Shown here one piece after another: positions 2,793 to 58,701 of a DNA stretch of 64,000 bases (position 1 is its first letter; each line of letters begins with the position of its first letter). The DNA comes from Nannocystaceae bacterium ST9 (GTDB taxonomy: Bacteria > Myxococcota_A > Polyangia > Nannocystales > Nannocystaceae), in NCBI GenBank assembly GCA_048320885.1, contig JBLWFJ010000001.1, positions 5,761,697 to 5,825,696 on the forward strand, written 5' to 3'. The position numbers were made by a program, and so were the translations under genes. The notes under the pieces were generated by a model. That model was not told the origin of the DNA. It searched no databases and saw only the letters and a list, made by a program, of their open reading frames with translations.

Positions 2793-3947
2793 ATGCGCGA
2801 GCTCCTGCCGCCCGCACCCGACCCCGGCTCGCTCAGCGCCGACGAGCGGCTCGACGAGCTCGGCTGGCTGCTGCGTCCGCCGGGCCAGGGCATCCACACG
2901 GTCTCGTCCGGCAAGCGCGAGCTGCTCGACAAGACGCGCGCGTACCTCGGAGAGTTCGACGACCAGCGAGCGTGGCGCGAACACGTCGCGGGCGTGCTCG
3001 CGGCCAAGCCCGAGGTCGCGATCCTCGCGATCCCCAGCGACACCGGGGCCGGGATCGTGCGAGGGGCCGCGCGCGGGCCCGAGGCGATCCGGGCCGCGCT
3101 CGGTCGAGCGCCCGCGCCCGATCTCGGCGACGTGATGTGCATCCAACACCTGCTCGACGAGCCGATGCTCTCGCAGGGCCAGCGCATGCGCTGCCAAGAC
3201 GCGCTGTGGCCCGAGCTCGAGGTCGGTCGTCGGCGCACGCTGCCGGTCTCGCCGGTCGGCATGGCCGAGCGCGCGCGCCGACTCCTGCTCGCGCAGGCGC
3301 CTCGGCTGCGCGTGTTCATGCTCGGGGGCGATCACACCGTCACCTGGCCGGTGATCGCTCCGCTGCTCGAGCTCGATCGCGTGCACGAGGTCGGGGTCGT
3401 GCACTTCGACGCGCACACCGATCTGCTGCCCGAGCGGCTCGGCGTGCGGATCTGCTTCGCGACCTGGGCCTTCCACGCCAACGCGCTGCTCGGCGGCGGC
3501 GAGCGGATGATCCAGATCGGCATCCGTGCCTCGGCTCGCGATCGCGGTCACTGGGAGCGCGAGCTCGCGGTCCGCCAGATCTGGGCCGACGAGGCGCTCG
3601 AGATCGGCGCCGAAGTGCTCGCCGCACGCGTGGTCGAGCACCTTCGCTTCCGCGGCATCCGTCGGGTTTACGTGAGTAATGACATCGATGGGACCGACGC
3701 GCACTGGGCGGCCGCTTGCGGAACACCCGAGCCGAGGGGCCTGACCCCGGCGATGGTCGTCGCGGTGATCCAGGCGTTGGGTCGTGAATTCGAGCTGATC
3801 GGCGGTGATCTGGTCGAGCTCGCGCCGGGCCTCTCGCTCGATCACGACGCCTCGCGCCGGAGCATCGAGACCGCAGCGCTCTATACGCGCGAGACCCTTG
3901 CCGCCCTCGCGGAGGGGACCCAGAGGAATAGCGATGAGCGAGCCTAG
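2793..3947 (+). CDS. Arginase-family ureohydrolase (agmatinase or formiminoglutamase-like).
   Basis: Motifs GGDHTVTWPV, HFDAHTDL and SNDIDGTD match the binuclear-Mn arginase fold. The gene is divergent from purB. Confidence 0.85.
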   Translation: MRELLPPAPDPGSLSADERLDELGWLLRPPGQGIHTVSSGKRELLDKTRAYLGEFDDQRAWREHVAGVLAAKPEVAILAIPSDTGAGIVRGAARGPEAIRAALGRAPAPDLGDVMCIQHLLDEPMLSQGQRMRCQDALWPELEVGRRRTLPVSPVGMAERARRLLLAQAPRLRVFMLGGDHTVTWPVIAPLLELDRVHEVGVVHFDAHTDLLPERLGVRICFATWAFHANALLGGGERMIQIGIRASARDRGHWERELAVRQIWADEALEIGAEVLAARVVEHLRFRGIRRVYVSNDIDGTDAHWAAACGTPEPRGLTPAMVVAVIQALGREFELIGGDLVELAPGLSLDHDASRRSIETAALYTRETLAALAEGTQRNSDERA

Positions 3948-4647
3948 TTCGCGTCCGCCGATGGAAGTCGCCGCCCGGCAAGAGTTCGAGCACAACGCGC
4001 TCCCGCTGCTGGACAATTTGTATGGCGCTGCGATGCGCCTGACTCGCGACCCGGCCGAGGCCGAGGATCTCGTGCAGGACTCGATGGTTCGGGCCTACCG
4101 GTTCTGGGACACCTTCCAGCGCGGCACCAACATCAAGGCCTGGTTGTTCACGATCCTGCGCAACACCTTCATCAACGGCTACCACCGCAAGGGTCGCGCG
4201 CGGACCTTCCAGTCCGACGTCAACGCGCAGATGAACTCGCTCGGGCCCGCGGTCGCGGTCGCGAACTCGACGAGCCAGCCGGCGGGGCCCGAAGAGGTCG
4301 TGCTCGGCCAGATCACCCAGGCCAAGATCCGCGAGGCCCTCGACTCGCTGCCGGCCGACTATCGCCTGGCCGTGACGCTCGCCGATCTCGAGGGCCTCTC
4401 GTACAAGGAGATCGCCGACATCATGGAGTGCCCGATCGGCACCGTGATGAGCCGGATCTATCGGGGTCGAAAGGCCCTGCACAAGCTGCTCTACGAGCAC
4501 GCGCGCGAGATCGGGTTCGTCGACGAGAGCGACCCGCCCGCGGGCGAACGCGAGACCGCGCGCGCTCGCAAGACCGCGCCTGCACGCAAGAAGGGCGAGG
4601 CCGAGGCGGTCGACCTCGCGGCCTGGCGCGATCGCAAGCGGGCCTGA
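3934..4647 (+). CDS. ECF (sigma-70 family, RpoE-like) RNA polymerase sigma factor.
   Basis: Region 2 (LVQDSMVRAYRFWDTFQ...KAWLFTILRNTFING) and region 4 (LADLEGLSYKEIADIMECPIGTVMSRIYRGRKAL) are recognisable. A GGAGGGGA RBS lies upstream of the ATG at 3934. Confidence 0.85.
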   Translation: MSEPSSRPPMEVAARQEFEHNALPLLDNLYGAAMRLTRDPAEAEDLVQDSMVRAYRFWDTFQRGTNIKAWLFTILRNTFINGYHRKGRARTFQSDVNAQMNSLGPAVAVANSTSQPAGPEEVVLGQITQAKIREALDSLPADYRLAVTLADLEGLSYKEIADIMECPIGTVMSRIYRGRKALHKLLYEHAREIGFVDESDPPAGERETARARKTAPARKKGEAEAVDLAAWRDRKRA

Positions 4648-24271: not shown

Positions 24272-25561
24272 ATGCCTCGCTCTCGCGTCGCGCTACCCAC
24301 CATCGCGCTCGGCTTCGGCCTCGTGTTCGCCTGCGCCGACGATGGTCCGGCCGGCACCGACGACGAAGTCGGCACCAGCGAGGGCACCGACACGACCGGC
24401 CCGAGCACCGACACGTCCGGCCCGAGCACCGACACCGACACGGGCAGCGAGAGCGACTCGAGCGATGGCCCGAGCCCCGATCTGCCCGACGAGCAGCCCG
24501 GCGAGGTGTTCGACGGCGAGCCGCTGCCGCCCGCCTCGCCCGGCGACTGGAACTGGATCGACATCCCCGAGGCCCAGTGCATCGACGGCAGCCCGGCCGG
24601 GATCGGCGTGCGCTACGGGATCTCCGACGAGCTGGTGATCTTCTTCGAGGGCGGCGGCGGCTGCTTCAACCCGGCCACCTGCGGGCTGTTCTACGCCAGC
24701 TTCGCCAACTTCGATCAGCTGACCTTCGATCTGATCTGGCAGAACACGGTCTTGCAGAGCGGCATCTTCTCGACGCTCAGCGCCGACAACCCGGTCCGCG
24801 ACTGGAACTTCGTCTACGTGCCCTACTGCACCGGTGACGTGCACGCCGGCGCGGCCCCGGACACGCCGGTGCCCGGCTACGCGTTCGATCAGCCCCAGCA
24901 GTTCGTCGGCTACACCAACGTCCATCACTTCCTCGATCGCGTGGTCCCGACCTTCCCGGACAGCTCGCACGTGCTGGTCGCGGGCATCAGCGCCGGCGGG
25001 TTCGGGGCCGCGTTCAACTACGATCGGATCGCCAAGGCCTTCCCCGACACCAAGGTCACGCTGATCGACGACTCGGGCCCGCCGCTGACCGACTCCTGGC
25101 TCGCGCCCTGCCTGCAACAGACCTGGCGCGAGCTCTACGATCTCGACGCGACCTTGCCGGCCGACTGCACCGAGTGCTTCCAGCCCGACGGCGGCGGCAT
25201 CCACAACCTCGCCGCGTACATCGCGAACGAGCACCCCGATCAGACCCTCGCGCTGATCTCCGCCGAGCAGGATCTCGTGATTCGAACCTTCTTCGGCTAC
25301 GGGATCCAAAACGAGGGCGGCCCGCTGTGCCCCGAGGGCATCTTCGAATTGCCGATGGACGGCGCGTACTTTCAGGACGGCCTCTACGCGCTGCGCAGCG
25401 AGGTCACCACGCAGCCCAACTGGGGCTCGTACCTGATGCCCGGCGTCACGCACACCTACCTGAGCTTCCCGGACTACTACCTGAAGACCGTCAACGGGAT
25501 TCGCATGGTCGATTGGGTTCGCAACGTCCTCGAAGGCCAGCCCTCGCACATCAGCCCCTGA
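24272..25561 (+). CDS. Pectin-acetylesterase/Notum-like (PAE family) serine hydrolase lipoprotein.
   Basis: Lipobox LVFAC. Motifs FFEGGGGCFNPATC, YVPYCTGDVHAG and GISAGG match the PAE-family GGGWC / YCDG..H.G / GCSAGG pattern. There is an acidic Thr/Ser-rich linker after the lipobox. Confidence 0.7.
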   Translation: MPRSRVALPTIALGFGLVFACADDGPAGTDDEVGTSEGTDTTGPSTDTSGPSTDTDTGSESDSSDGPSPDLPDEQPGEVFDGEPLPPASPGDWNWIDIPEAQCIDGSPAGIGVRYGISDELVIFFEGGGGCFNPATCGLFYASFANFDQLTFDLIWQNTVLQSGIFSTLSADNPVRDWNFVYVPYCTGDVHAGAAPDTPVPGYAFDQPQQFVGYTNVHHFLDRVVPTFPDSSHVLVAGISAGGFGAAFNYDRIAKAFPDTKVTLIDDSGPPLTDSWLAPCLQQTWRELYDLDATLPADCTECFQPDGGGIHNLAAYIANEHPDQTLALISAEQDLVIRTFFGYGIQNEGGPLCPEGIFELPMDGAYFQDGLYALRSEVTTQPNWGSYLMPGVTHTYLSFPDYYLKTVNGIRMVDWVRNVLEGQPSHISP

Positions 25562-26054
25562 GTCGCTCGCGGATCGCCGCGAGCTCCAGCGCGACCTCGC
25601 GATCCTTGGGTCGTGTCAGGCTCTGCTTGATCTCGATGAGTTGATCGAGCGTGATTACCTTGCAGCGCAGATCTCCGAGGGTCAACTCGACGGTTCGCAG
25701 CGCCGGGTAGACCCCGATGGGCGAGACCTCCCGGAGCACGTCGAGTCGGCCGAGATCGGTCTCGATCAGCAGCAGACGCGCCTCGACGAGTCGATCGAGC
25801 GGTTCGTCGAGTATCCGAAGATCGGGTCGAGTGGCGTGACGAGGATCGAGATCGGCGATCGCGGCGAGCAGGCGCCGCATGTTCTCGACGTCGAAGGGGG
25901 CCGCGAGATCGAGGTCGACCGTCATGCGCGAGCACCCGAACAGCGCCGCCGCCACGCCGCCGACGATGCAGAACTCGAAGCCGCTGGCGAGCAGCCGGCT
26001 CAGCAGCGCGTCGTTCTGCTGGGTACGCGGCTTGCGAGCCACGTCAGCGACCAA
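25551..26054 (-). CDS. Minimal nucleotidyltransferase-fold (MNT-like) protein, paralog A.
   Basis: FCIVGGVAAALFGCSRMTVDLDL (the GG/S...T.D.D nucleotidyltransferase signature) and a C-terminal LIEIKQSLTRPKDREVALEL. It is paralogous to 51897..52361. Confidence 0.6.
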   Translation of the reverse strand: MVADVARKPRTQQNDALLSRLLASGFEFCIVGGVAAALFGCSRMTVDLDLAAPFDVENMRRLLAAIADLDPRHATRPDLRILDEPLDRLVEARLLLIETDLGRLDVLREVSPIGVYPALRTVELTLGDLRCKVITLDQLIEIKQSLTRPKDREVALELAAIRERLRG

Positions 26055-26238
26055 CGAGGCGCAGCGCGTCGTTCAACTGCTTCAAGCGCTGGGCTGGAGT
26101 GAGCTCGAGGTTGCGCTCGAGCAGCAACATGTCGATCCCGTACTCCGCGGCGGCTCGCCACGCAGGACCGCCGCGCTCGAGTTGCGCGCGGGCGAGCTGC
26201 TCGTAGTCGAGTTCGGCCGGGTCGATCGGCTTCGACAT
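26044..26238 (-). CDS. Small helical partner protein (64 aa), overlapping and upstream of MNT-like paralog A.
   Basis: Overlaps the MNT-like gene by 11 nt (coupled). Good GC3. It resembles the small ORF 52351..52566 next to paralog B. Confidence 0.45.
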   Translation of the reverse strand: MSKPIDPAELDYEQLARAQLERGGPAWRAAAEYGIDMLLLERNLELTPAQRLKQLNDALRLVGR

Positions 26239-49917: not shown

Positions 49918-51840
49918 TCAGCCCATGCGCTGCTGGAAGTAGAGCTCCTCGATCGCCTTGACCTTGTCGGCCTCGCCGGCGTGCTTGTCCGAGCGAATCG
50001 CTACCAGTTTGGGGTCGCGCAGCTTGAGATCGCCGGTCTCGTTGTCCTTGACGATGCCCTCGAAGCGGACGGTCACGACGATGTGCGGCCGCAGCTCGAC
50101 GCCGGGCCGCACGCCCGACGAGCTCTGGCGAGTGGTCCGCTTCCCGGTCATCAGGCCGTTGCGCATGATCTCGGCCTGCAGCTCGCGGTCGCGGATCTGA
50201 TCGACGCCGGCGACGTCGCCGACGTCGAGGAAGCCGCCGTCGTTGGTCCGGGCCCCGATCGCGAAGCTGCCGAACATTCCGGCCTTGGCCTTGCTGGTCA
50301 CCGAGAACACGCCCTCGATCAGCACCAGATCCAGCGTGATCTCGGGCTTGCGCTTGAGCCAGTCGGGGTCGCGGCGGGCCAGCGCGTACACGCCGTCGAG
50401 ATCCTTGGTGATGATCCCTTCGTAGCCCTGGCTGCGGAAGTGCTGGTAGAGCCGATTGACGTCGTTCTTGTCCTTGGCCAGCTGGCCCTCGGCGATCGTC
50501 AGCGGGATCGGGTTGGGGAAGTTGCTGACCGGGCCGAGGAACTGCTGGAGCAGCTTGCGGCGCTCGTGCAGGGGCAGCTGGGTCAGGTCGCGGCCGTTGA
50601 GGTAGACGAGATCGAAGGCGGCGTACTTGAGGTTGACCGGGCGCTGGACGACCTCGCCCGACAAGCTGGCGTAGACCTCGTAGACGGTCGCCGGGCGGGC
50701 GCCGTCGAGATCGAACACCGAGCCGAACAGCTCGCCGTCGATGATGCAGTCGCGGCAGGGGAAGTTGGCGATCGTCTGACGCATGCCGGTGATCTGCTCG
50801 AGCCAGTCCTTGCGTCCGCGCGTGTAGGCGGCGCAGAGCATCGAGCCGCTCGCGTCGGTCGACTTGTGCAGCATCAGGCGGATGCCGTCGTACTTGCGCT
50901 CGACCCAGCAGGGGTACTTCTTGACCGTGTCGGTCGAGCCGCTGGCCAGCGCGGGCTTGACCGCGACGAGCGGCTGGAGCTGGACCTCGCGCAGACCGTC
51001 GGGGCCCTTGGCCGCGAGCGTCTTGGCGACCGAGAAGGGATCCGACAGGGCGATCGCGTGCTGGACCGCCTCGGGCTCGGCCCCGTAGTACTGGCCGAGC
51101 GCGCGAGCGATCACGGCGCCCTCGTATTCGAACCCGAAGTCGGCCTTGCCGAGGATCAGCCGGGCCATGAAGTAGGCCTCGATCTTGCCCATCCGCTCGA
51201 GCAGCGAGCGGAGCAGATCGAACTTGAGCGAGCGGACGGCGTCGGGCAGGAACTCGAGCGTCAGCATGACCTCGCCGGCGGTCAGCGGCGGATCGCTCTT
51301 GAGCTGCTTGCGCGACTCGGCGAACAGCACACCCGGATCGCCGACCCGCGACAGGCGATCGAGCATGTCGCGGTAGCTGACCATCGTGACCGACATCAGC
51401 AGACGCAGCAGGCTGTCGCGCTTGAACGTGCTGGTCCGACCGAGGAACACGTCGCCGACCAGACAGCCGATCTTCTGGACCGCCGAGAGCCCGGTGTCCT
51501 TGTCGAGGAAGCGCTGGACCAGCTCGGCCCGACCGGCCGTGTCGGGCGGCGGGTCGCCGACGATCCCGAACAAGCTCGCGGCCTTCTCGGGGTGCATGCG
51601 CATCAGCGGCATGAACAGCCCGCGGCACAGCGAGTGAAAGGGGATGGTCGCCAGCTCCGAGAGCGAGCGCCCGGCCTGCGTGAGCTGATCGGTCACGAAC
51701 TGCACGTGCAGCGGCAGGCCGAGCACCTCGTCCATGTACTCGTAGCTGGGCCGGTGACTGCCGATCTGCCCGGTCAGCAGCTCGAGGCTCTCGCCCGAGT
51801 GGAACCACTTGCGGATGGTCGCGTCGTCGACGATGTGCAT
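49918..51840 (-). CDS. ATP-dependent DNA ligase (Lig1/LigB type, with an N-terminal DNA-binding domain).
   Basis: Adenylation motif I VERKYDGIRLMLHK, then LCAAYTRGRKDW...DGELF..., EGIITKDLDGVYALARRD...WLKRKPE, and an OB domain. Confidence 0.85.
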   Translation of the reverse strand: MHIVDDATIRKWFHSGESLELLTGQIGSHRPSYEYMDEVLGLPLHVQFVTDQLTQAGRSLSELATIPFHSLCRGLFMPLMRMHPEKAASLFGIVGDPPPDTAGRAELVQRFLDKDTGLSAVQKIGCLVGDVFLGRTSTFKRDSLLRLLMSVTMVSYRDMLDRLSRVGDPGVLFAESRKQLKSDPPLTAGEVMLTLEFLPDAVRSLKFDLLRSLLERMGKIEAYFMARLILGKADFGFEYEGAVIARALGQYYGAEPEAVQHAIALSDPFSVAKTLAAKGPDGLREVQLQPLVAVKPALASGSTDTVKKYPCWVERKYDGIRLMLHKSTDASGSMLCAAYTRGRKDWLEQITGMRQTIANFPCRDCIIDGELFGSVFDLDGARPATVYEVYASLSGEVVQRPVNLKYAAFDLVYLNGRDLTQLPLHERRKLLQQFLGPVSNFPNPIPLTIAEGQLAKDKNDVNRLYQHFRSQGYEGIITKDLDGVYALARRDPDWLKRKPEITLDLVLIEGVFSVTSKAKAGMFGSFAIGARTNDGGFLDVGDVAGVDQIRDRELQAEIMRNGLMTGKRTTRQSSSGVRPGVELRPHIVVTVRFEGIVKDNETGDLKLRDPKLVAIRSDKHAGEADKVKAIEELYFQQRMG

Positions 51841-51896: not shown

Positions 51897-52361
51897 TTGA
51901 ACCTGGTCGACGAACTCCACGCGATCGCGGCGGCCCTGCGCGGTGCAGGGGTCGAATACGCCATCTGTGGGGGCCTGGCGGTGACGATCCACGGCGCCAC
52001 CCGGACGACCAAGGACATCGACTTGCTCGTCGAGCCTCGTGACGTCGCACGCGTGCTCGAGCTGCTGCGCCCGCTCGGCTACGTGTTCGCGGCGCTGCCG
52101 ATGACCTTCGACGCCGGGACCCCGAGCGAGCGGCATGTGCAGCGGGTCAGCAAGCTCGAGGGCGATCAGCACGTGTGCGTGGATCTGCTGCTCGCCGACG
52201 CTGCGTTCGCGGGCCTGCTCGCCGACAAGGTCGAGGTCGCGCTGCCCGAAGGTCCGTTGGTCGTCGTCTCGTTGCTCGGGCTGACCACGATGAAGCGACT
52301 GGCTGGTCGACCTCAGGACATCGCGGATCTCCAGCGGCTGGAGGTGCCCGATGCCGACTGA
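51897..52361 (+). CDS. Minimal nucleotidyltransferase-fold (MNT-like) protein, paralog B.
   Basis: YAICGGLAVTIHGATRTTKDIDLLV and C-terminal LTTMKRLAGRPQDIADLQRL, matching paralog A at 25551..26054. Confidence 0.6.
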   Translation: MNLVDELHAIAAALRGAGVEYAICGGLAVTIHGATRTTKDIDLLVEPRDVARVLELLRPLGYVFAALPMTFDAGTPSERHVQRVSKLEGDQHVCVDLLLADAAFAGLLADKVEVALPEGPLVVVSLLGLTTMKRLAGRPQDIADLQRLEVPDAD

Positions 52362-52566
52362 TCTCTCGCCGGATGCCGTCGCGCGCCGGCTCGCTCGACT
52401 GCGCGAGCTCTACGTGCCCGAAGATCGAGCCAGCGCGACGGCCCGACTGGCCGCCGAGCGCCCGTTTCGACGCGAGAGCTTCGAGCAGGGCGTCGGGCGC
52501 CGGCTCGCCGAGCTGCGAGACCTGCTCGAGCTCTCGAACGTGCTGCAGCGCGCGAGCCGACGGTAA
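52351..52566 (+). CDS. Small partner protein (71 aa) overlapping the 3' end of MNT-like paralog B.
   Basis: 11-nt overlap (coupled). Its C-terminus (RRLAELRDLLELSNVLQRA) resembles the C-terminus of the 26044..26238 protein (RLKQLNDALRLV). Confidence 0.4.
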   Translation: MPTDLSPDAVARRLARLRELYVPEDRASATARLAAERPFRRESFEQGVGRRLAELRDLLELSNVLQRASRR

Positions 52567-52572
52567 CTCAGC

Positions 52573-53022
52573 TCAATCGAGCGGCTTGGTCATCAGCAGG
52601 CGCGGCACGGCCTTGAACCCCTCGCGCTCGTAGAGCCGGCGGGCGCCCTCGTTCTCGTGGCGCACGACCAGGTGCAGGGCACCGACCCCGGCCGCGCGCG
52701 CGTGCGAGTCGGCGGCCTGCAAGAGCCGCTCGCCCAGGCCGCGCCCGCGGGCCTCGGGCACGACCCAGAGCTCGGTCACGAACGCATCGCGGCCGCCCCA
52801 CTCGAGGTCGAACCCGAAGGTCAGGACCGCGTAGCCGTGCAGCGTCGCGGCGTCGATCGCGACCACGACCAGTCCGAGCGACTCGTCGGCGAGCAGGCGT
52901 CGCAGCGCTCGCTCGATCCGCTCGGGCTGCCAGGGGATCCGCTCGCCCTCGTTGAAGGGCTGCATCTGCGCGAGCAGGGCGGGGACGTCGGACTCGGTGG
53001 CGCGGCGCAGCTCGAGCGCCAT
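52573..53022 (-). CDS. GNAT family N-acetyltransferase.
   Basis: ELWVVPEARGRGLGERLL...RRLYEREGF matches GNAT motifs A and B. Its ATG overlaps the upstream ATPase stop by 1 nt. Confidence 0.8.
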   Translation of the reverse strand: MALELRRATESDVPALLAQMQPFNEGERIPWQPERIERALRRLLADESLGLVVVAIDAATLHGYAVLTFGFDLEWGGRDAFVTELWVVPEARGRGLGERLLQAADSHARAAGVGALHLVVRHENEGARRLYEREGFKAVPRLLMTKPLD

Positions 53023-54128
53023 CACGCCATCTCGATGATGGCCTTGTCCTCGGGCTGATCCGGCGACACCACCAATTCGCCAGTCCCGTCCTTCTGCACG
53101 ACCTTGATCGGGTGCTGGAAGATCGGCGCCGACACGCACTTGACCGCGCGGATGACCACGATCTTCTCGCGGTACTTGCCGCCCCACTCGGCGGCGTGCT
53201 CCTTGCTGCCCAGGCTCATCTCTTCGATCAGGAACACGGCGTCGGCGGTGTGCTGCATGGCTTCGCCGCCGACCGGATCGCCGGTGTCCTTGATCTGCCC
53301 GACGCACAGGCAGGTCACGCCCTGCTCGTGGTTGTAGGTCTTGAGCGTGCTCAGGTGGTCGGCGGTCTTGGCCCGGCTCGGGTCGAGCATGTTGAGCGAG
53401 TCGATGACCACGAACTTGATGCCGGCCTTCTCGACCAGGTAGCGGTACTTGGCGATGAAGTCGTCCCAGGTCGTGCCGCGGTGGTACTGCGACTCGATCA
53501 CCCACATGTTCTCGAGCGCCTTGGTCTTGAAGTCCTTCTCCTTCAAGCCGGTCGCGGCCATGCCGATCTTGGTCATGCGCGAGCCGAGGTCGTCGCGGCC
53601 GGAGCCGGCCTTGTCGTGGAAGCCCTCTTCGGCGACGACGAACGCAACCTTCATGCCGCTGGCGGCGACGCGGGCGAGCGTGGCCAAGGTGGTGCGGGTC
53701 TTGCCTTTGCCGGGCGGGCCGACCAGCGCGATCGTGCAGCCCTTGGGCAGACCGCCGAGCGCGTGCTTGCCGTCTTCGGTCAGGCACAGGTAGTCGAGCA
53801 CGGTGCCGGTCGGCAGCGGCTCTTGTCGACGGATCAGATCGTCGAAGGTCGCCGGCCGGATGATGTCGGCGTCGAGGCCCGCGTCTTCGTCCTTCTCGAG
53901 CTTGTTCTGGAAGGGCGTGGCCGAGGGGTCGAACTGCGGGGCCATGCCCTGGCCGCCCATCATCTGCCCCATCATCTGCATCATCTGCATCATCATGGGG
54001 TTCATGCCGGGCATCATGCCCTGCTGCGGCATCATGCCGGGCATCATGCCGGGCATCATCCCCGGCATCATCATGCCAGGCTGCATCATTCCGGGGTTCT
54101 GCGGCGGGTTCTGATCGTCGTTGGCCAT
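53022..54128 (-). CDS. KaiC/RecA-superfamily single-domain ATPase with an N-terminal Met/Pro/Gly/Gln-rich low-complexity segment.
   Basis: Walker A GPPGKGKT, Walker B VVIDSL, then a KaiC-like core. The N-terminus is MANDDQNPPQNPGMMQPGMMMPGMMPGMMPGMMPQQGMMPGMNPMMMQMMQMMGQMMGGQGM. Confidence 0.75.
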   Translation of the reverse strand: MANDDQNPPQNPGMMQPGMMMPGMMPGMMPGMMPQQGMMPGMNPMMMQMMQMMGQMMGGQGMAPQFDPSATPFQNKLEKDEDAGLDADIIRPATFDDLIRRQEPLPTGTVLDYLCLTEDGKHALGGLPKGCTIALVGPPGKGKTRTTLATLARVAASGMKVAFVVAEEGFHDKAGSGRDDLGSRMTKIGMAATGLKEKDFKTKALENMWVIESQYHRGTTWDDFIAKYRYLVEKAGIKFVVIDSLNMLDPSRAKTADHLSTLKTYNHEQGVTCLCVGQIKDTGDPVGGEAMQHTADAVFLIEEMSLGSKEHAAEWGGKYREKIVVIRAVKCVSAPIFQHPIKVVQKDGTGELVVSPDQPEDKAIIEMA

Positions 54129-54179
54129 GGTCGGGTGCCGGTCGGGCCGGGACGATATCATCGCCCGCGGCAGTCCTGC

Positions 54180-56360
54180 ATGACCCGGCTCGAAAACCCT
54201 GAAATCGCGGCGTTGTTCGCCGAGATGGCCGACCTCATGCAGATCAAGGGCGGCGACCGGCACAAGGTCATGGCCTTCCGTCGGGTCGCGCGGATCGTCG
54301 AGGCGCTGCCGCGGCCGGTCGACGAGCTGCTCGCTCGCGGCGAGCTCGACAAGGTCAAGGGCATCGGCGGCGGGACGGTCCACCGGGTCAAGCAGATGTT
54401 GCGGGCCGGCAGCTGCGACGACCTCGACGAGCTGCGCAACACCCTGCCCCCGGGGCTGCGCGAGCTGATCCAGATCAAGGGGATCGGGCCGACGACGATC
54501 CGCAACATCTACAACCGCTTGGGCATCCGCGACCTCGACGACCTCGAGCGCGCGGCCAAGTCGGGGGCGATCGAGGCCATCCCGCGGATGGGCAGCTACG
54601 TGGCCCAGAAGATCCTGTCGGGCATCGAGGCCTATCGAGCGCGGCGCGGCAAGGTCCCGCTGATCGAGGCCCAGCGGGTCGGTCGGCGGATCGTCGCGGC
54701 GCTCGCCCAACTCCGCCAGGTCCAGCGGATCGAGCAGGCCGGCAGCGTGCGGCGAGGCAAGGCGGCGATCGGCGACCTCGACATTCTGGTCGCGTCGACC
54801 GATCCGGGCCCGATCGCGGCCCGCTTTCAGACTCTGCCCGACGTCGCGGCGATCCTGCTCGAGGGCGACACGCGCTGCTCGGTCCGCCTGCGCAACGGGC
54901 TGCAGGCCGATCTTCGCGTGTTGCCGCCGCAGAGCTTCGGCGCCGGGCTGCACTACTTCACCGGGTCGAAGCTGCACAACGTCGAGATCCGCAAGCGCGC
55001 CGGTCGGATGGGGCTCAAGGTCGGGGACAAGGGCGTGTTCAAGCGGACCGGCGACGCGGCCAACGAGTCGCTGCCCGAGAACCTGATCGATCCTTGCCCG
55101 GAGGAGATCGACGTGTTTCGCCATGTCGGCCTGCCGTGGATCCCACCCGAGCTGCGCGAGAACTTCGGCGAGATCGAGGCGGCCGAGCGCGGTCGCCTGC
55201 CGCAGCTGATCACGCAGGCCGAGCTGCGCGGCGACCTGCACATGCACACGACCGACAGCGACGGCTCGGGCAGCCTGCGGGCGATGGCCGAGCGGGCGCG
55301 CGAGCTCGGCCACGAGTACATCGCGATCACCGATCACTCGCAGGCCATGCGGATCGCCGGCGGGCTCGACGAGGCCCGGCTGATCGATCAGCTCGCGCGC
55401 GTGCGGGCGTTCGCGGCCGGGTTCGAGGGCATGCGGGTGTTGGCCGGGATCGAGGTCGACATCCTGGCCGACGGCAGCCTCGATCTCGATCCGGCCTTGC
55501 TCGCCCAGCTCGACTTCGTGGTCGGCTCGGTCCACCGCTGGACCGACATGCGCGAGGACGCGATGACCGAGCGGGTGGTCCGGGCGATCCGCTCGGGCGT
55601 GGTCGACTGCATCGGGCATCCGACCGGGCGGCGCCCGGGCAAGCGCGATCCTTTTGCGATCGACATGGAGCGGGTGCTGGCGGCCGCGCGCGAGTTCGAC
55701 GTGGCGCTCGAGTGCAACGGCGGGCCCAACCGCATGGACCTCGGCGACGTCGACTGCCACAAGTGCCGCGAGCGCGGGGTGGCGGTCGCGATCAACACCG
55801 ACGCGCACGCGCCCGAGCACCTCGGTCGACACGAGTTCGGGCTGGCGATGGCCCGGCGCGGCTGGCTGGAGCGCGGCCACGTGCTCAACGCGATGCCCTG
55901 GGAGCGGATCGCCGAGCGTCGGAGCAAGCGGTTGCGCGATCACGGCGAGGCCGAGTGGGGGACCAATCCCGTGCAGGTCCAGGTCCCGCTCGGAGTCGTG
56001 CTCGAGCCCGAGTCGGACGAGCCGCGCACCCGCGAGTCCGGCGAGGCGCATGCCTGGGGCGAGCTCGACGACGAGCCGTCGGCGTCGGTCGAGGCGACGG
56101 TCGAGATCGCGGAGCCGAGCGAGCCCGCGGCGCCCGAGCCCGAGCCACCGCCGATCGATCTCGACTCGGTCGAGGTGCTGAGCGAGCGACTGCGACTCGG
56201 GGTCGAGGCGATCGACGACGCGCTGACCGAGCGACTGACCGAGTGGGTGACCCGCGGCGGCGAGGACCCCGAGCTGGCGGCGGCGCTCGGGCGACTGTCC
56301 GAGAACCCGCTGCAGGCCGGCTTCGATCTGCTGCTGACGATCTGGAACCGCGGCGGCTGA
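54180..56360 (+). CDS. polX: DNA polymerase X family protein with a C-terminal PHP phosphoesterase domain.
   Basis: HhH (GIGGGTV, GIGPTT), the Pol-beta-like nucleotidyltransferase GDLDILV, then PHP motifs LHMHTTDSDG, HSQAM, DTDAH. Confidence 0.9.
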   Translation: MTRLENPEIAALFAEMADLMQIKGGDRHKVMAFRRVARIVEALPRPVDELLARGELDKVKGIGGGTVHRVKQMLRAGSCDDLDELRNTLPPGLRELIQIKGIGPTTIRNIYNRLGIRDLDDLERAAKSGAIEAIPRMGSYVAQKILSGIEAYRARRGKVPLIEAQRVGRRIVAALAQLRQVQRIEQAGSVRRGKAAIGDLDILVASTDPGPIAARFQTLPDVAAILLEGDTRCSVRLRNGLQADLRVLPPQSFGAGLHYFTGSKLHNVEIRKRAGRMGLKVGDKGVFKRTGDAANESLPENLIDPCPEEIDVFRHVGLPWIPPELRENFGEIEAAERGRLPQLITQAELRGDLHMHTTDSDGSGSLRAMAERARELGHEYIAITDHSQAMRIAGGLDEARLIDQLARVRAFAAGFEGMRVLAGIEVDILADGSLDLDPALLAQLDFVVGSVHRWTDMREDAMTERVVRAIRSGVVDCIGHPTGRRPGKRDPFAIDMERVLAAAREFDVALECNGGPNRMDLGDVDCHKCRERGVAVAINTDAHAPEHLGRHEFGLAMARRGWLERGHVLNAMPWERIAERRSKRLRDHGEAEWGTNPVQVQVPLGVVLEPESDEPRTRESGEAHAWGELDDEPSASVEATVEIAEPSEPAAPEPEPPPIDLDSVEVLSERLRLGVEAIDDALTERLTEWVTRGGEDPELAAALGRLSENPLQAGFDLLLTIWNRGG

Positions 56361-56376: not shown

Positions 56377-58701
56377 TCAGATCGTCACGCCCATCGACTT
56401 GCACTGCTTGCGCAAGGGCGGCTTGCGGACCCCGGCGACCTTGTCGAGCGCGCTCTTGGCCTTGCCGGCGTCGCCGAGCTTGCACGCGGCGAGCAGCATG
56501 AGCTCGGCGGTCTTGGGCTTGGCGCCCTTCTTGTAGCTGGCGGCCGCGAGCTTGTAGGCCTCGCCGGCCTTGCCCTTGTCGTAGGCCGACTTGGCGGCGT
56601 CGTAGAGCTGCTTGGCGTCGCGGTTGTCGACGACGGCGGGCTCGGGCTTGCTCGCGACCGGCTCGGGCTTGGGTTCCGGCTTGGGCTTGGGCTTGGTCGC
56701 CGTCGGCGTGGGCTCGGGCGCGGGCGCGGGCTTGCTCGACTTGGGCTTGCCCGACTTGGGCTTGCTCGTGGACCCGGGCTCGGGGCCGGGCTCGGGCTCG
56801 CTGGGTGGGGCTTCGACCTCGGGTTCGCCGGAATCGGGCGAGGGCGTGGGATCGGCCTGCGCGAGCACGTCTGGGCCCGCGATGGGTTCGACGGGTTTGG
56901 GCTCGACGGGCTCGCTCGGCGGGTCGTCGTTGGCGGCGACCTCGTCGCTGCTCGAGTCGTCGGGGGGCAGCAGCGCGACCAGCAGCGAGGCCGCGATTGC
57001 GAAGAGCACGAAGCCGATCACCAGCTTGCGACGGCCACCGGTGTTGGCGGCCGGGGCCGGCTCGTCGTCCGGCACCTCCATGATCAGAGTCTTGGTCGGC
57101 GGCGGGTGGTGGGTCTTCGCGACCAGCTCGTCGGCCATGCCGTCGATCAGCGCACCGGTGTCTTGCGGGCCGATCGGACGAGGTGCGCCCTCGGGCCGCG
57201 CGAGCACGGGCAGAGGTACGACCTTGCCGGCGTCGGGCGAGGGGGCGGGCGCACGCGCGGGAGGCATCGGCGAGCGGCCGGGCCTGGGCAGCGCCGCGGG
57301 TCCGCGCGGGTTGGTGTCTTCGCGGATCTCGGTGCTCGGCTGGGTGGCCTCGGGTGTCGGCGAGGGCTCGTGCAATCGGACGATCACCGCCGGCGGTTCG
57401 TAGGGAACGCCGAGGCGCGGTCGATCGTCGATCACGGATCGCGGCGCCGGCGGAGCCATCGGATTCGCGGGCTTGCTCGACATGCTTCCGTCCACCGAGG
57501 TGGAAGTGTCTTGCGAAGGTCCGCTCGATTCATGCGATCGCGACTCCGAAGGTGCGCTCGAATCGAACGTCGGGGGGATCGCCGAATCCACCGATGTCGG
57601 CCGCTCGATGATCACCGGCTCGAGGGTCGCGGGCGGCTCGACGTGCGATTCGGTGATTGTCGCTACGATCGCGTCGCGGGGCTCGGCCGCACGCGGCGGC
57701 GGGCTCTGGCGATCGTCGATTTCCTCGGGCACCGCCCCCTGCGCGGCGAGGGTCGCGAGGCTGGGAAAGGGTGCAGTGACGAGATTGTCGATGTCGTCGG
57801 ACTTGGACTTGCCGGCGAGCGGCTTAGGCCCGACGACCGAATCGAGCTTTGGCCCGGTGGGCTTGGGCCCGACGACCGAATCGAGCTTTGGCTCGGTGGG
57901 CTTGGGCCCGACGACCGAATCGAGCTTTGGCCCGGTGGGCTTGGGCCCGACGACCGAATCGAGCTTGGGCTCGGGCTTGGCGTCCGCGAGCGCCATCGCG
58001 ATCGGACCGGGCGTCTCGGTGCGCTCGACGGGGGCGCTCGCCTCTCGCTCGCGCGCGGCCCGAAGCACCTCGGCCGGATCGATCAACCCGACCGAGAGCT
58101 CGAACTCCAAGTCGGGCGAGAGCGCGATGGCCTTGGCGAGGTCCGAGCCGGCCGCGGGCTTGGGCCCGGACGCCTTGCGCTTGTTCGCGACCGGCTTGCC
58201 CTCGATGATCTTGGATTCGGGCCGCGACTCGACGAGCTTGGTCTCGACGGGCTTGGTCTCGACGGGCTTGGTCTCGACGGGCTTGGGCGCCGGGCCGGAC
58301 ACGGTCTCGATCCGTGACTGAGGTAGCGCACCGATCGGAGCACCGGTGGTCGCGAGCTTGGGCGGCGCCGCGAGCTTGGGCGCACCGAGCTTCGGCGGCG
58401 GTGGGACGGCGAGCTTCGGAGGCGCCGGCACGGCGAGCTTGGTCGCGGGGGCGCCCGGTAGCACCGGCACGGCGCCCGAGGGAGCTCGCGCGCCGAGGGC
58501 CGGCACGTCGGCGAAGAGATCGTCGCTGCCGAACACGTCGACGGCCGGCATCCCGGCGATGGTCAGCGGTCGCGGTCCATCCGAAGAGAAGGGCGGCAGC
58601 GTCGGCGGCTCGCCGTGCAGCGGCTTGGGAGCTCCCGTCGCGCTGGACTCGTCGCGCCGGGGGGAGTCGCTCGAGGATGCGTGGTCGTCGGGCATCGCCA
58701 C
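56377..58701 (-). CDS. Pro/Lys-rich single-pass membrane protein with internal tandem repeats, hypothetical.
   Basis: 774-aa ORF with a TM (LVIGFVLFAIAASLLVALL), PKLDSVVGPKPTG ×4 and KPVETKPVETKPVE repeats. GC3 is good, but the low complexity makes the call tentative. Confidence 0.5.
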   Translation of the reverse strand: MAMPDDHASSSDSPRRDESSATGAPKPLHGEPPTLPPFSSDGPRPLTIAGMPAVDVFGSDDLFADVPALGARAPSGAVPVLPGAPATKLAVPAPPKLAVPPPPKLGAPKLAAPPKLATTGAPIGALPQSRIETVSGPAPKPVETKPVETKPVETKLVESRPESKIIEGKPVANKRKASGPKPAAGSDLAKAIALSPDLEFELSVGLIDPAEVLRAAREREASAPVERTETPGPIAMALADAKPEPKLDSVVGPKPTGPKLDSVVGPKPTEPKLDSVVGPKPTGPKLDSVVGPKPLAGKSKSDDIDNLVTAPFPSLATLAAQGAVPEEIDDRQSPPPRAAEPRDAIVATITESHVEPPATLEPVIIERPTSVDSAIPPTFDSSAPSESRSHESSGPSQDTSTSVDGSMSSKPANPMAPPAPRSVIDDRPRLGVPYEPPAVIVRLHEPSPTPEATQPSTEIREDTNPRGPAALPRPGRSPMPPARAPAPSPDAGKVVPLPVLARPEGAPRPIGPQDTGALIDGMADELVAKTHHPPPTKTLIMEVPDDEPAPAANTGGRRKLVIGFVLFAIAASLLVALLPPDDSSSDEVAANDDPPSEPVEPKPVEPIAGPDVLAQADPTPSPDSGEPEVEAPPSEPEPGPEPGSTSKPKSGKPKSSKPAPAPEPTPTATKPKPKPEPKPEPVASKPEPAVVDNRDAKQLYDAAKSAYDKGKAGEAYKLAAASYKKGAKPKTAELMLLAACKLGDAGKAKSALDKVAGVRKPPLRKQCKSMGVTI
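57821..57976 (-). repeat. 39-bp tandem repeat ×4 (ggcttgggcccgacgaccgaatcgagctttggcccggtg) encoding PKLDSVVGPKPTG.
   Basis: Read directly in the sequence. Confidence 0.85.

Follow-up and report, generated by a model that had tools for sequence, protein, structure and literature searches.

Nucleotidyltransferase (NTase) toxins of the MenT type have so far been characterized almost only in Mycobacterium tuberculosis, where the toxin–antitoxin (TA) system MenAT1 (Rv0078B–Rv0078A; PDB 8AN4, 8AN5, and 8RR5) pairs the toxin MenT1, a member of the AbiEii/DUF1814 superfamily, with the antitoxin MenA1. MenT1 adds nucleotides, preferentially cytidine monophosphate (CMP), to the acceptor ends of tRNA and thereby blocks translation. 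Its active site comprises T39, D41, D43, K137, and D152, of which D41, K137, and D152 are required for toxicity and T39 is the phospho-acceptor. MenA1 is a two-helix, non-DNA-binding protein of 68 amino acids that spans two MenT1 protomers, occludes their active-site faces, and induces the auto-phosphorylation of T39, and a single MenA1 helix is sufficient for this induction. In COG2253 and COG4849 (written DUF2253 and DUF4849 in the original paper), two families of the DUF1814 superfamily, the T39 site is invariably occupied by Ser or Thr, and MenA1 homologues have been reported in only 21 genomes. The subject of the present analysis is a pair of loci, A and B, in a 64,000-nucleotide stretch of the genome of Nannocystaceae bacterium ST9 (contig JBLWFJ010000001.1, positions 5,761,697 to 5,825,696; hereafter, the window), each of which encodes a minimal NTase and an adjoining small protein.

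In AbiEi–AbiEii from Streptococcus agalactiae and in MenAT3 and MenAT4, which are TA systems of the COG5340–DUF1814 type (type IV/VII), the genes are likewise bicistronic and mobile, and the NTase is a growth-arresting toxin, a role that is putative, by analogy, for the NTases of the window. The NTase superfamily and the catalytic motifs I–IV are shared by all of these proteins. However, the toxins of AbiE, MenAT3, and MenAT4 have approximately 290 residues with extra C-terminal domains, and their antitoxins are winged helix-turn-helix (HTH) COG5340 proteins of approximately 200 residues that autoregulate transcription, whereas the partners in the window have 64 and 71 residues and no winged HTH. 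Minimal NTases are also found in the opposite role; in the type VII HEPN–MNT (HepT–MntA) systems, where a minimal NTase and a small helical protein are again encoded by a two-gene operon, the NTase serves as the antitoxin.

Two-Gene Loci A and B

We read both loci as self-contained, horizontally mobile two-gene TA modules of the MenAT1 kind with new partner families, arranged toxin-first in locus B, and by analogy with MenAT1 we give this reading a probability of roughly 0.6. The case is built on homology and fold, on catalytic and phospho-acceptor residues, on strict partner co-inheritance, on a variable genomic context, and on natural gene fusions. Systems of this kind, with an AbiEii/MenT NTase toxin and a tiny helical antitoxin, are already known from MenAT1, and an existing class is thus extended rather than a new one founded; what is new is the set of three partner families, the toxin-first order of family B, and the breadth of minimal NTases in Myxococcota and Solirubrobacterales. 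The four open reading frames (ORFs) claimed in an initial annotation of the window (25551–26054 (−), 26044–26238 (−), 51897–52361 (+), and 52351–52566 (+)) are all present, and the two loci are laid out as follows.

25551..26042 (−): NTase A, 163 amino acids from GTG 26042; minimal MenT1-like nucleotidyltransferase, putative toxin; key residues G28–G29, R39, T41, D43, D45, D101, K139, R144, and D147
25551–26054 (−): alternative frame of NTase A, 167 amino acids from a TTG start at 26054
26044..26238 (−): small partner A (small A), 64 amino acids; putative antitoxin, upstream of NTase A; core motif GPAW.AA...G(I/V)D..LL.RNL.LTP.QRL, with four short helices predicted
26040..26054 (−): junction A; small A stop codon TGA (26046–26044), 1 nucleotide, then GTG 26042
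51897..52361 (+): NTase B, 154 amino acids, TTG start; MenT1-like nucleotidyltransferase, putative toxin; key residues G25–G26, R36, T38, D40, D42, D96, K133, R138, D141, and D144
52351..52566 (+): small partner B (small B), 71 amino acids; putative antitoxin, downstream of NTase B; two conserved, apparently helical segments, V..RL..LR.LYVPE and F..V.RRL.ELRAL.EL...LH
52351..52361 (+): junction B; 11-nucleotide overlap ATGCCGACTGA, with the small B start inside the end of NTase B

The NCBI annotation gives small A and small B (ACNOYE_24100 and ACNOYE_24210) and the 163-residue NTase A (P0001) as hypothetical proteins, and it names NTase B (P0121) a “nucleotidyltransferase family protein.”

The likeness to MenAT1 covers the size of the minimal NTase (approximately 150–195 residues), the register of its motifs (GG, R..T.D.D, hydrophobic-K, and RPQDxxDL), the phospho-acceptor Thr, which is kept in both NTases, and a partner of approximately 65–70 residues that is encoded in the same operon and has no recognizable DNA-binding domain; the helicity of the partner comes from a structural model for small A only. 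Locus A also shares the antitoxin-then-toxin order of MenAT1. In contrast, the toxin gene comes first in locus B and its partner follows downstream, NTases A and B are 30–40 residues shorter than MenT1, and the hosts are Myxococcota and a Solirubrobacterales branch rather than Mycobacterium.

Relationship of the NTases to MenT1

The initial annotation had likened the loci to TA or AbiEii-like modules, and this is supported. In both sequence and fold, MenT1, a toxin of the AbiEii/DUF1814 superfamily with a helical partner (MenA1) of approximately 68 residues, is the closest characterized relative. In full-sequence comparisons with the PDB, NTase B matched 8an4 (MenT1, “AbiEii/AbiGii toxin family”) along its full length (residues 6–148) with a phmmer E-value of 8.5e-5, MenT1 was its only match at E ≤ 0.01, and no ANT or Lnu chain was found at E ≤ 1 for either NTase. 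The alignment of the family-B profile with MenT1 by hhalign reached a probability of 96.3% (E 1.5e-9, 139 columns). For NTase A, the AlphaFold2 (AF2) model has a predicted local distance difference test (pLDDT) score of 94.7, and its best Foldseek match is again MenT1 (8an5_B, E 7.7e-5).

The signature described at first, GG...R.T.D.D followed by K....RP(K/Q)D, is carried by both NTases. Motifs I–IV of the DUF1814 superfamily were defined by Dy et al. (2014) as hG[G/S] (I), DhD with Arg at position −4 relative to its first Asp (II), a Lys flanked by hydrophobic residues and followed by an Arg (III), and +DxxD (IV). Motifs I and II are found as VGG...SRMTVDLD in NTase A and CGG...TRTTKDID in NTase B, with a 13-residue spacing exactly as in MenT1 and with near-invariant or invariant G, T, and D residues. 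Motif III is LIEIK139QSLTR144 in NTase A and LTTMK133RLAGR138 in NTase B, where the K and R are invariant and the K aligns to K137 of MenT1. Motif IV of NTase B (QDIAD) has the same form as QDRSD in MenT1, within a shared RPQDxxDL, and both D141 and D144 are invariant. The active-site residues of MenT1 correspond to the following positions.

MenT1 T39: T38 in NTase B, T41 in NTase A
MenT1 D41: D40 in NTase B, D43 in NTase A
MenT1 D43: D42 in NTase B, D45 in NTase A
MenT1 K137: K133 in NTase B, K139 in NTase A
MenT1 D152: D141 in NTase B, D147 in NTase A

All five equivalents are invariant or near-invariant in families A and B, and the Thr equivalent to the phospho-acceptor is invariant in both (T41 in 26 family-A sequences and T38 in 25 family-B sequences). 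Each family additionally has its own near-invariant basic loop, PRHATRPDL in family A (NTase A residues 67–75, ~25818–25844, −) and GT.RERHVQRVSK in family B (NTase B residues 74–86, ~52116–52154, +). Both loops follow motif II and precede the third acidic residue; they are missing from MenT1 and are candidate substrate elements for binding RNA or nucleotides.

The family databases place these proteins less sharply. On NTase B, the Pfam models NTP_transf_5, Aminoglyc_resit, and DUF6036 score just above their cut-offs and cover only the N-terminal core; on NTase A, only DUF2204 appears, below threshold; NCBIfam gave no match for the NTases. Among the 26 family-A members, 5 match Pfam AbiEii at E ≤ 0.01, and some relatives match DUF6036 or DUF2204. 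The literature searched contained no mention of DUF6036, DUF2204, or PF14907 in a TA context. These matches raise the question of whether the NTases are instead non-toxic enzymes that modify small molecules, either similar to ANT(2'')-Ia and LnuA or acting on metabolites, with the small protein as an accessory subunit or regulator. NTase B scores 28 bits against the Aminoglyc_resit cut-off of 21, the proteins are of similar size (~155–177 residues), and the fold scores are near-equal. The match to PF10706 (Aminoglyc_resit), however, covers only residues 7–63 of NTase B (profile positions 2–60 of 149), which is the generic core shared with ANT(2'')-Ia, LnuA, and TM1012; the C-terminal half is left uncovered, and NTase A is not matched at all. 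The C-terminal K...RPQDxxDL instead corresponds to motifs III–IV of MenT1 and DUF1814, and the PDB comparisons returned MenT1 and no ANT or Lnu chain. The known enzymes of this group act on small molecules, and we know of no coupled small partner of ANT(2'')-Ia or LnuA; a strictly co-inherited, translationally coupled tiny partner has, to our knowledge, not been described for ANT or Lnu enzymes. A variable genomic context and multi-copy occurrence also fit a selfish module better, and we regard a small-molecule enzyme as unlikely. A reading of the NTP_transf_5 match in terms of ribosomally synthesized and post-translationally modified peptides or phosphonates was rejected, as only the NTase core is covered, the small ORF lacks the hypervariability of a precursor and instead encodes a conserved helical protein, and no candidate enzyme is conserved among the neighbors.

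Conserved Small Partner Proteins

High-GC DNA gives rise to many long spurious ORFs, and the small ORFs could in principle be such frames beside NTases that stand alone. Partners were scored with family hidden Markov models on the loci of three NTase subfamilies: 18 of 19 Myxococcota loci have the small-A type upstream of the family-A NTase, 79 of 83 loci have the small-B type immediately downstream of the family-B NTase (the remaining four being contig ends), and all 61 Solirubrobacterales loci have a third type upstream, each on the right strand and side. No cross-association between partner types occurred in any of these loci. Of 80 metagenomic loci searched by tblastn with small B, nearly all had a relative adjacent to the NTase on its downstream side, and family-B loci that initially gave no hit turned out to hold a divergent member of the small-B family or a contig edge. 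A profile search with small A yielded 496 clusters (representatives at 50% identity) at E ≤ 1e-3, almost all of 55–110 residues. The nucleotide differences show an excess at third codon positions, the overlapping starts are conserved, and the small genes are called by several independent annotation sources. These conservation data exclude the possibility that the ORFs are spurious. The initial annotation had named two outcomes that would undo it, small ORFs without conservation and NTases without partner dependence; the ORFs proved to be conserved and the NTase–partner pairing strict.

The three partner families are unannotated, lack relatives in Pfam, NCBIfam, PADLOC, and the PDB, and constitute a new element. 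Small A and small B matched no family of Pfam, NCBIfam, or PADLOC, the 55-residue Solirubrobacterales partner matched no Pfam family, and the 64- and 71-residue partners matched no AbiEi-type antitoxin model of Pfam or PADLOC. The sole PDB “hit” of the small proteins, the designed repeat protein 8etq, was discarded as a helical-repeat artefact. The AF2 model of small A is all-helical (pLDDT 70). A Fis-type HTH in small A (AA...GID..LL.RNL) was likewise set aside, as no Pfam HTH model matches and the Foldseek matches to sigma region 4 and NtrC4 are non-significant (E 4–9), and it is left at speculation.

If the roles were reversed, as in type VII MntA–HepT, the NTase would be an antitoxin that nucleotidylates a small toxin. 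The HEPN–MNT precedent and the leading position of the small gene in locus A speak for such an arrangement. As the initial annotation had held, however, the partners are not HEPN proteins: neither small protein nor family consensus contains Rx4-6H, and no HEPN Pfam model matches. The small proteins are charged and helical, without enzymatic or membrane-toxin features, and the NTases are closer to the toxin MenT1 than to MntA. In two of three natural fusions described below, the catalytic DxD is lost and the small domain is kept, which would be expected if it is the NTase activity that is harmful. We consider reversed roles very improbable.

Distinct Subfamilies and a Third Branch

The initial annotation described the two loci as paralogous modules, of which the homology of the NTases stands, as a distant one, and the duplication of a module does not. 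NTases A and B are 39% identical over 49 residues by BLASTP (E 2e-7), and their family profiles align over 138 columns by hhalign (probability 98.5%, E 3.8e-15), which makes them distant homologues by sequence. Small A and small B, in contrast, show nothing by BLASTP and an hhalign probability of 0.6%. The similar C-terminal LxxLxDLL motif that had been noted in both small proteins has no backing from these comparisons, and its D is conserved in neither small family; judged from the sequences, the resemblance is a chance likeness of amphipathic helices. Because no locus mixes partner types and the partners are unrelated, what the window holds is not one module in duplicate but two distinct subfamilies, acquired separately and each paired with its own cognate partner.

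A homologue search with NTase A returned 277 matches, and one with NTase B returned 853. A third NTase branch, approximately 30% identical to NTase A, is present in about 60 Solirubrobacterales/Conexibacteraceae genomes. Its partner is a conserved 55-residue ORF upstream (...AEAVRVQRLREDA.RP.SVNLAE(G/T)IALSHKLMRF.GAA) that extends 4 nucleotides past the start of the NTase gene, as in the example locus L095 (of L090–L150), where the small ORF occupies 3819–3986 and the NTase 3983–4459. This partner is unrelated to small A and small B by hhalign (all pairwise probabilities 0.2–0.6%).

Gene Order and Overlap

The inverted gene order noted at the outset is confirmed, being opposite in A and B, and each order is conserved inside its own family. 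The 11-nucleotide overlap attributed to both loci holds for B, where ATGCCGACTGA joins the two genes; among 58 homologous loci with complete ORFs, the overlap at this junction is 11 nucleotides in 38, 8 in 11, 4 in 7, and 14 in 2. The position of the small B start inside the end of NTase B implies that the two are translationally coupled. For A, an 11-nucleotide overlap requires the TTG start at 26054, and GTG 26042 is the more likely start of NTase A because the N-termini of homologues and the NCBI call of 163 residues fit it. In homologous family-A loci, the small gene and the NTase gene overlap by 4 nucleotides (6 of 6 look-ups), and the sequence indicates that NTase A and small A are tightly coupled with either start.

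Genomic Context and Natural Fusions

The conserved and mobile unit is the gene pair and not its neighborhood. In a comparison of 19 family-B, 11 family-A, and 48 Solirubrobacterales loci, essentially no flanking ORF recurred from one locus to another, and the neighbors found in the window (ligase, GNAT, esterase, and enoyl-CoA hydratase genes) are absent beside the homologous modules. One family-A module, on a 1.5 Mb contig (L159, ENA ctg495481), has a PIN/PhdYefM TA pair within ~2 kb and a BrxC/PglY-like (BREX) gene ~2 kb away, which hints at a defense or TA island in that genome. Another family-A module adjoins transposase genes, and Enhygromyxa salina SWB007 carries two family-A modules.

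Among the small-A profile matches are three natural fusions of small A to NTase A (P0335, P0389, and P0396; 221–236 residues), which may be genuine or may have arisen from frameshifts in metagenome assemblies. They argue for a physical or functional coupling of small A and NTase A. The catalytic DxD is kept in P0389 and lost in P0335 and P0396, an anecdotal pattern that is in keeping with harm from uncontrolled NTase activity.

Proposed Mechanism and Weight of the Evidence

In the proposed mechanism, the NTase would be the toxin, a minimal AbiEii/DUF1814-MenT member with an apparently intact active site. The analogy with MenT1, MenT3, and MenT4 suggests that it would extend the acceptor stems of tRNA at their 3' ends with added nucleotides, thereby blocking aminoacylation and translation. 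The co-translated helical protein of 64–71 residues would be the cognate antitoxin, binding the NTase and occluding its active-site face, and it may also cause the invariant Thr of the active site (T41 in A and T38 in B) to become auto-phosphorylated, as MenA1 does with T39 of MenT1.

Several observations weigh against this MenAT1-like reading. The family-A profile finds MenT1 as its top PDB match only at E 0.19, and hhalign of the two gives a probability of 37% (E 3.5e-4). For the Pfam AbiEii model (PF08843), NTase B scores 13.4 bits against a gathering cut-off of 22.5 and NTase A has no match, which sets both apart from the toxins of AbiE, MenAT3, and MenAT4. A search against PADLOC, which the initial annotation had proposed, returned AbiEii matches that are weak (E 8e-5 for NTase B and 3e-3 for NTase A), and neither PADLOC nor Pfam AbiEii models reach a curated threshold. 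Motif IV of NTase A is KDREV, in which D147 is invariant and the second Asp of +DxxD is replaced by a near-invariant Val (KDxxV). F28 and F38, the residues of MenT1 that contact MenA1, are not conserved and correspond to L27 and T37 in NTase B, which in sequence terms fits a different partner and interface. No MenA1 chain in the PDB was found at E ≤ 10 with small A or small B, as single sequences or as family profiles, and the AF2 model of small A, of low confidence at pLDDT 70, has no Foldseek match to MenA1 in 8an5 at E ≤ 10. The neighborhoods in the window are not defense islands, the neighbors being housekeeping, metabolic, or repair genes, and inverted repeats upstream of the modules show no enrichment in a set of 30 family-B loci (mean z 0.39). 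Finally, family-B NTases are unusually uniform, with ~65–80% identity over more than 100 clusters and a fixed length of 153–154 residues, which would also fit a conserved cellular function.

That uniformity, the ordinary neighbors, and the lack of a conserved upstream operator are also what a domesticated regulatory pair would show, in which a cellular RNA or protein would be nucleotidylated by the NTase as a physiological regulator, and the small protein would serve as inhibitor or adaptor of the NTase under normal control; published work on MenT toxins has itself considered housekeeping inputs. The flanking genes, however, are unconserved even at 65–70% NTase identity, which is unusual for a core regulator, the distribution is patchy and multi-copy, and some loci adjoin other TA pairs, BREX genes, or transposases, so that domestication appears rather unlikely. 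A wider proposal is possible, although on balance doubtful: that the minimal MenT1-like NTases form a large unrecognized radiation in Myxococcota and Solirubrobacterales with at least three unrelated helical cognate partners of 55–75 residues and one toxin-first subfamily, or else that family B is a housekeeping switch that nucleotidylates RNA or protein.

Read as MenAT1-like modules, the hundreds of uncharacterized MenT1-like pairs in soil Myxococcota and Actinomycetota offer a natural comparative set for the generality of antitoxin-induced NTase auto-phosphorylation and for tRNA targets. If all three partners induce Thr auto-phosphorylation, the MenA1 mechanism would be a general, fold-independent off-switch for NTases. 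Family definitions for the small proteins, in Pfam or in databases of TA and defense systems, would be warranted.

Other Features of the Window

Locus A is flanked by a pectinacetylesterase-like gene (24272–25561, +) and an enoyl-CoA hydratase gene. The former is convergent with NTase A, and their 3' ends overlap by 11 nucleotides (25551–25561), an overlap in which no terminator-like structure was detected. Locus B adjoins an ATP-dependent DNA ligase gene on one side and, on the other, a GNAT gene (52573–53022) followed by genes for a KaiC-like ATPase and a PolX-PHP polymerase; further spans in this neighborhood are 49918–51840 (−), 53022–~54500 (−), and ~54100–56360 (+). These surroundings look like a DNA-repair neighborhood that is not conserved beside other family-B modules. 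The N-terminus of the KaiC-like ATPase is a low-complexity segment rich in Met, Pro, Gly, and Gln (PGMMQPGMMMPGMM...).

An imperfect inverted repeat lies at the start of small A (26228–26240/26263–26275, 13-nucleotide arms, 85%), and another lies just upstream of the NTase B start (51846–51867/51874–51895, 22-nucleotide arms, 77%, 6-nucleotide loop). They are probably not conserved operators, because such repeats are not enriched across the family-B loci. No sigma-70 or terminator consensus was found.

No further copies of the modules were found in the window by tblastn. A weak match to NTase B at 57490–57642 was dismissed as chance, lying inside a Pro/Ala-rich low-complexity ORF. This ORF (56377–58701, −) encodes 774 residues rich in Pro, Ala, and Lys, with tandem “PKLDSVVGPKPTGPKLDSVVGPKP” and “KPVETKPVETKPVETK” repeats.

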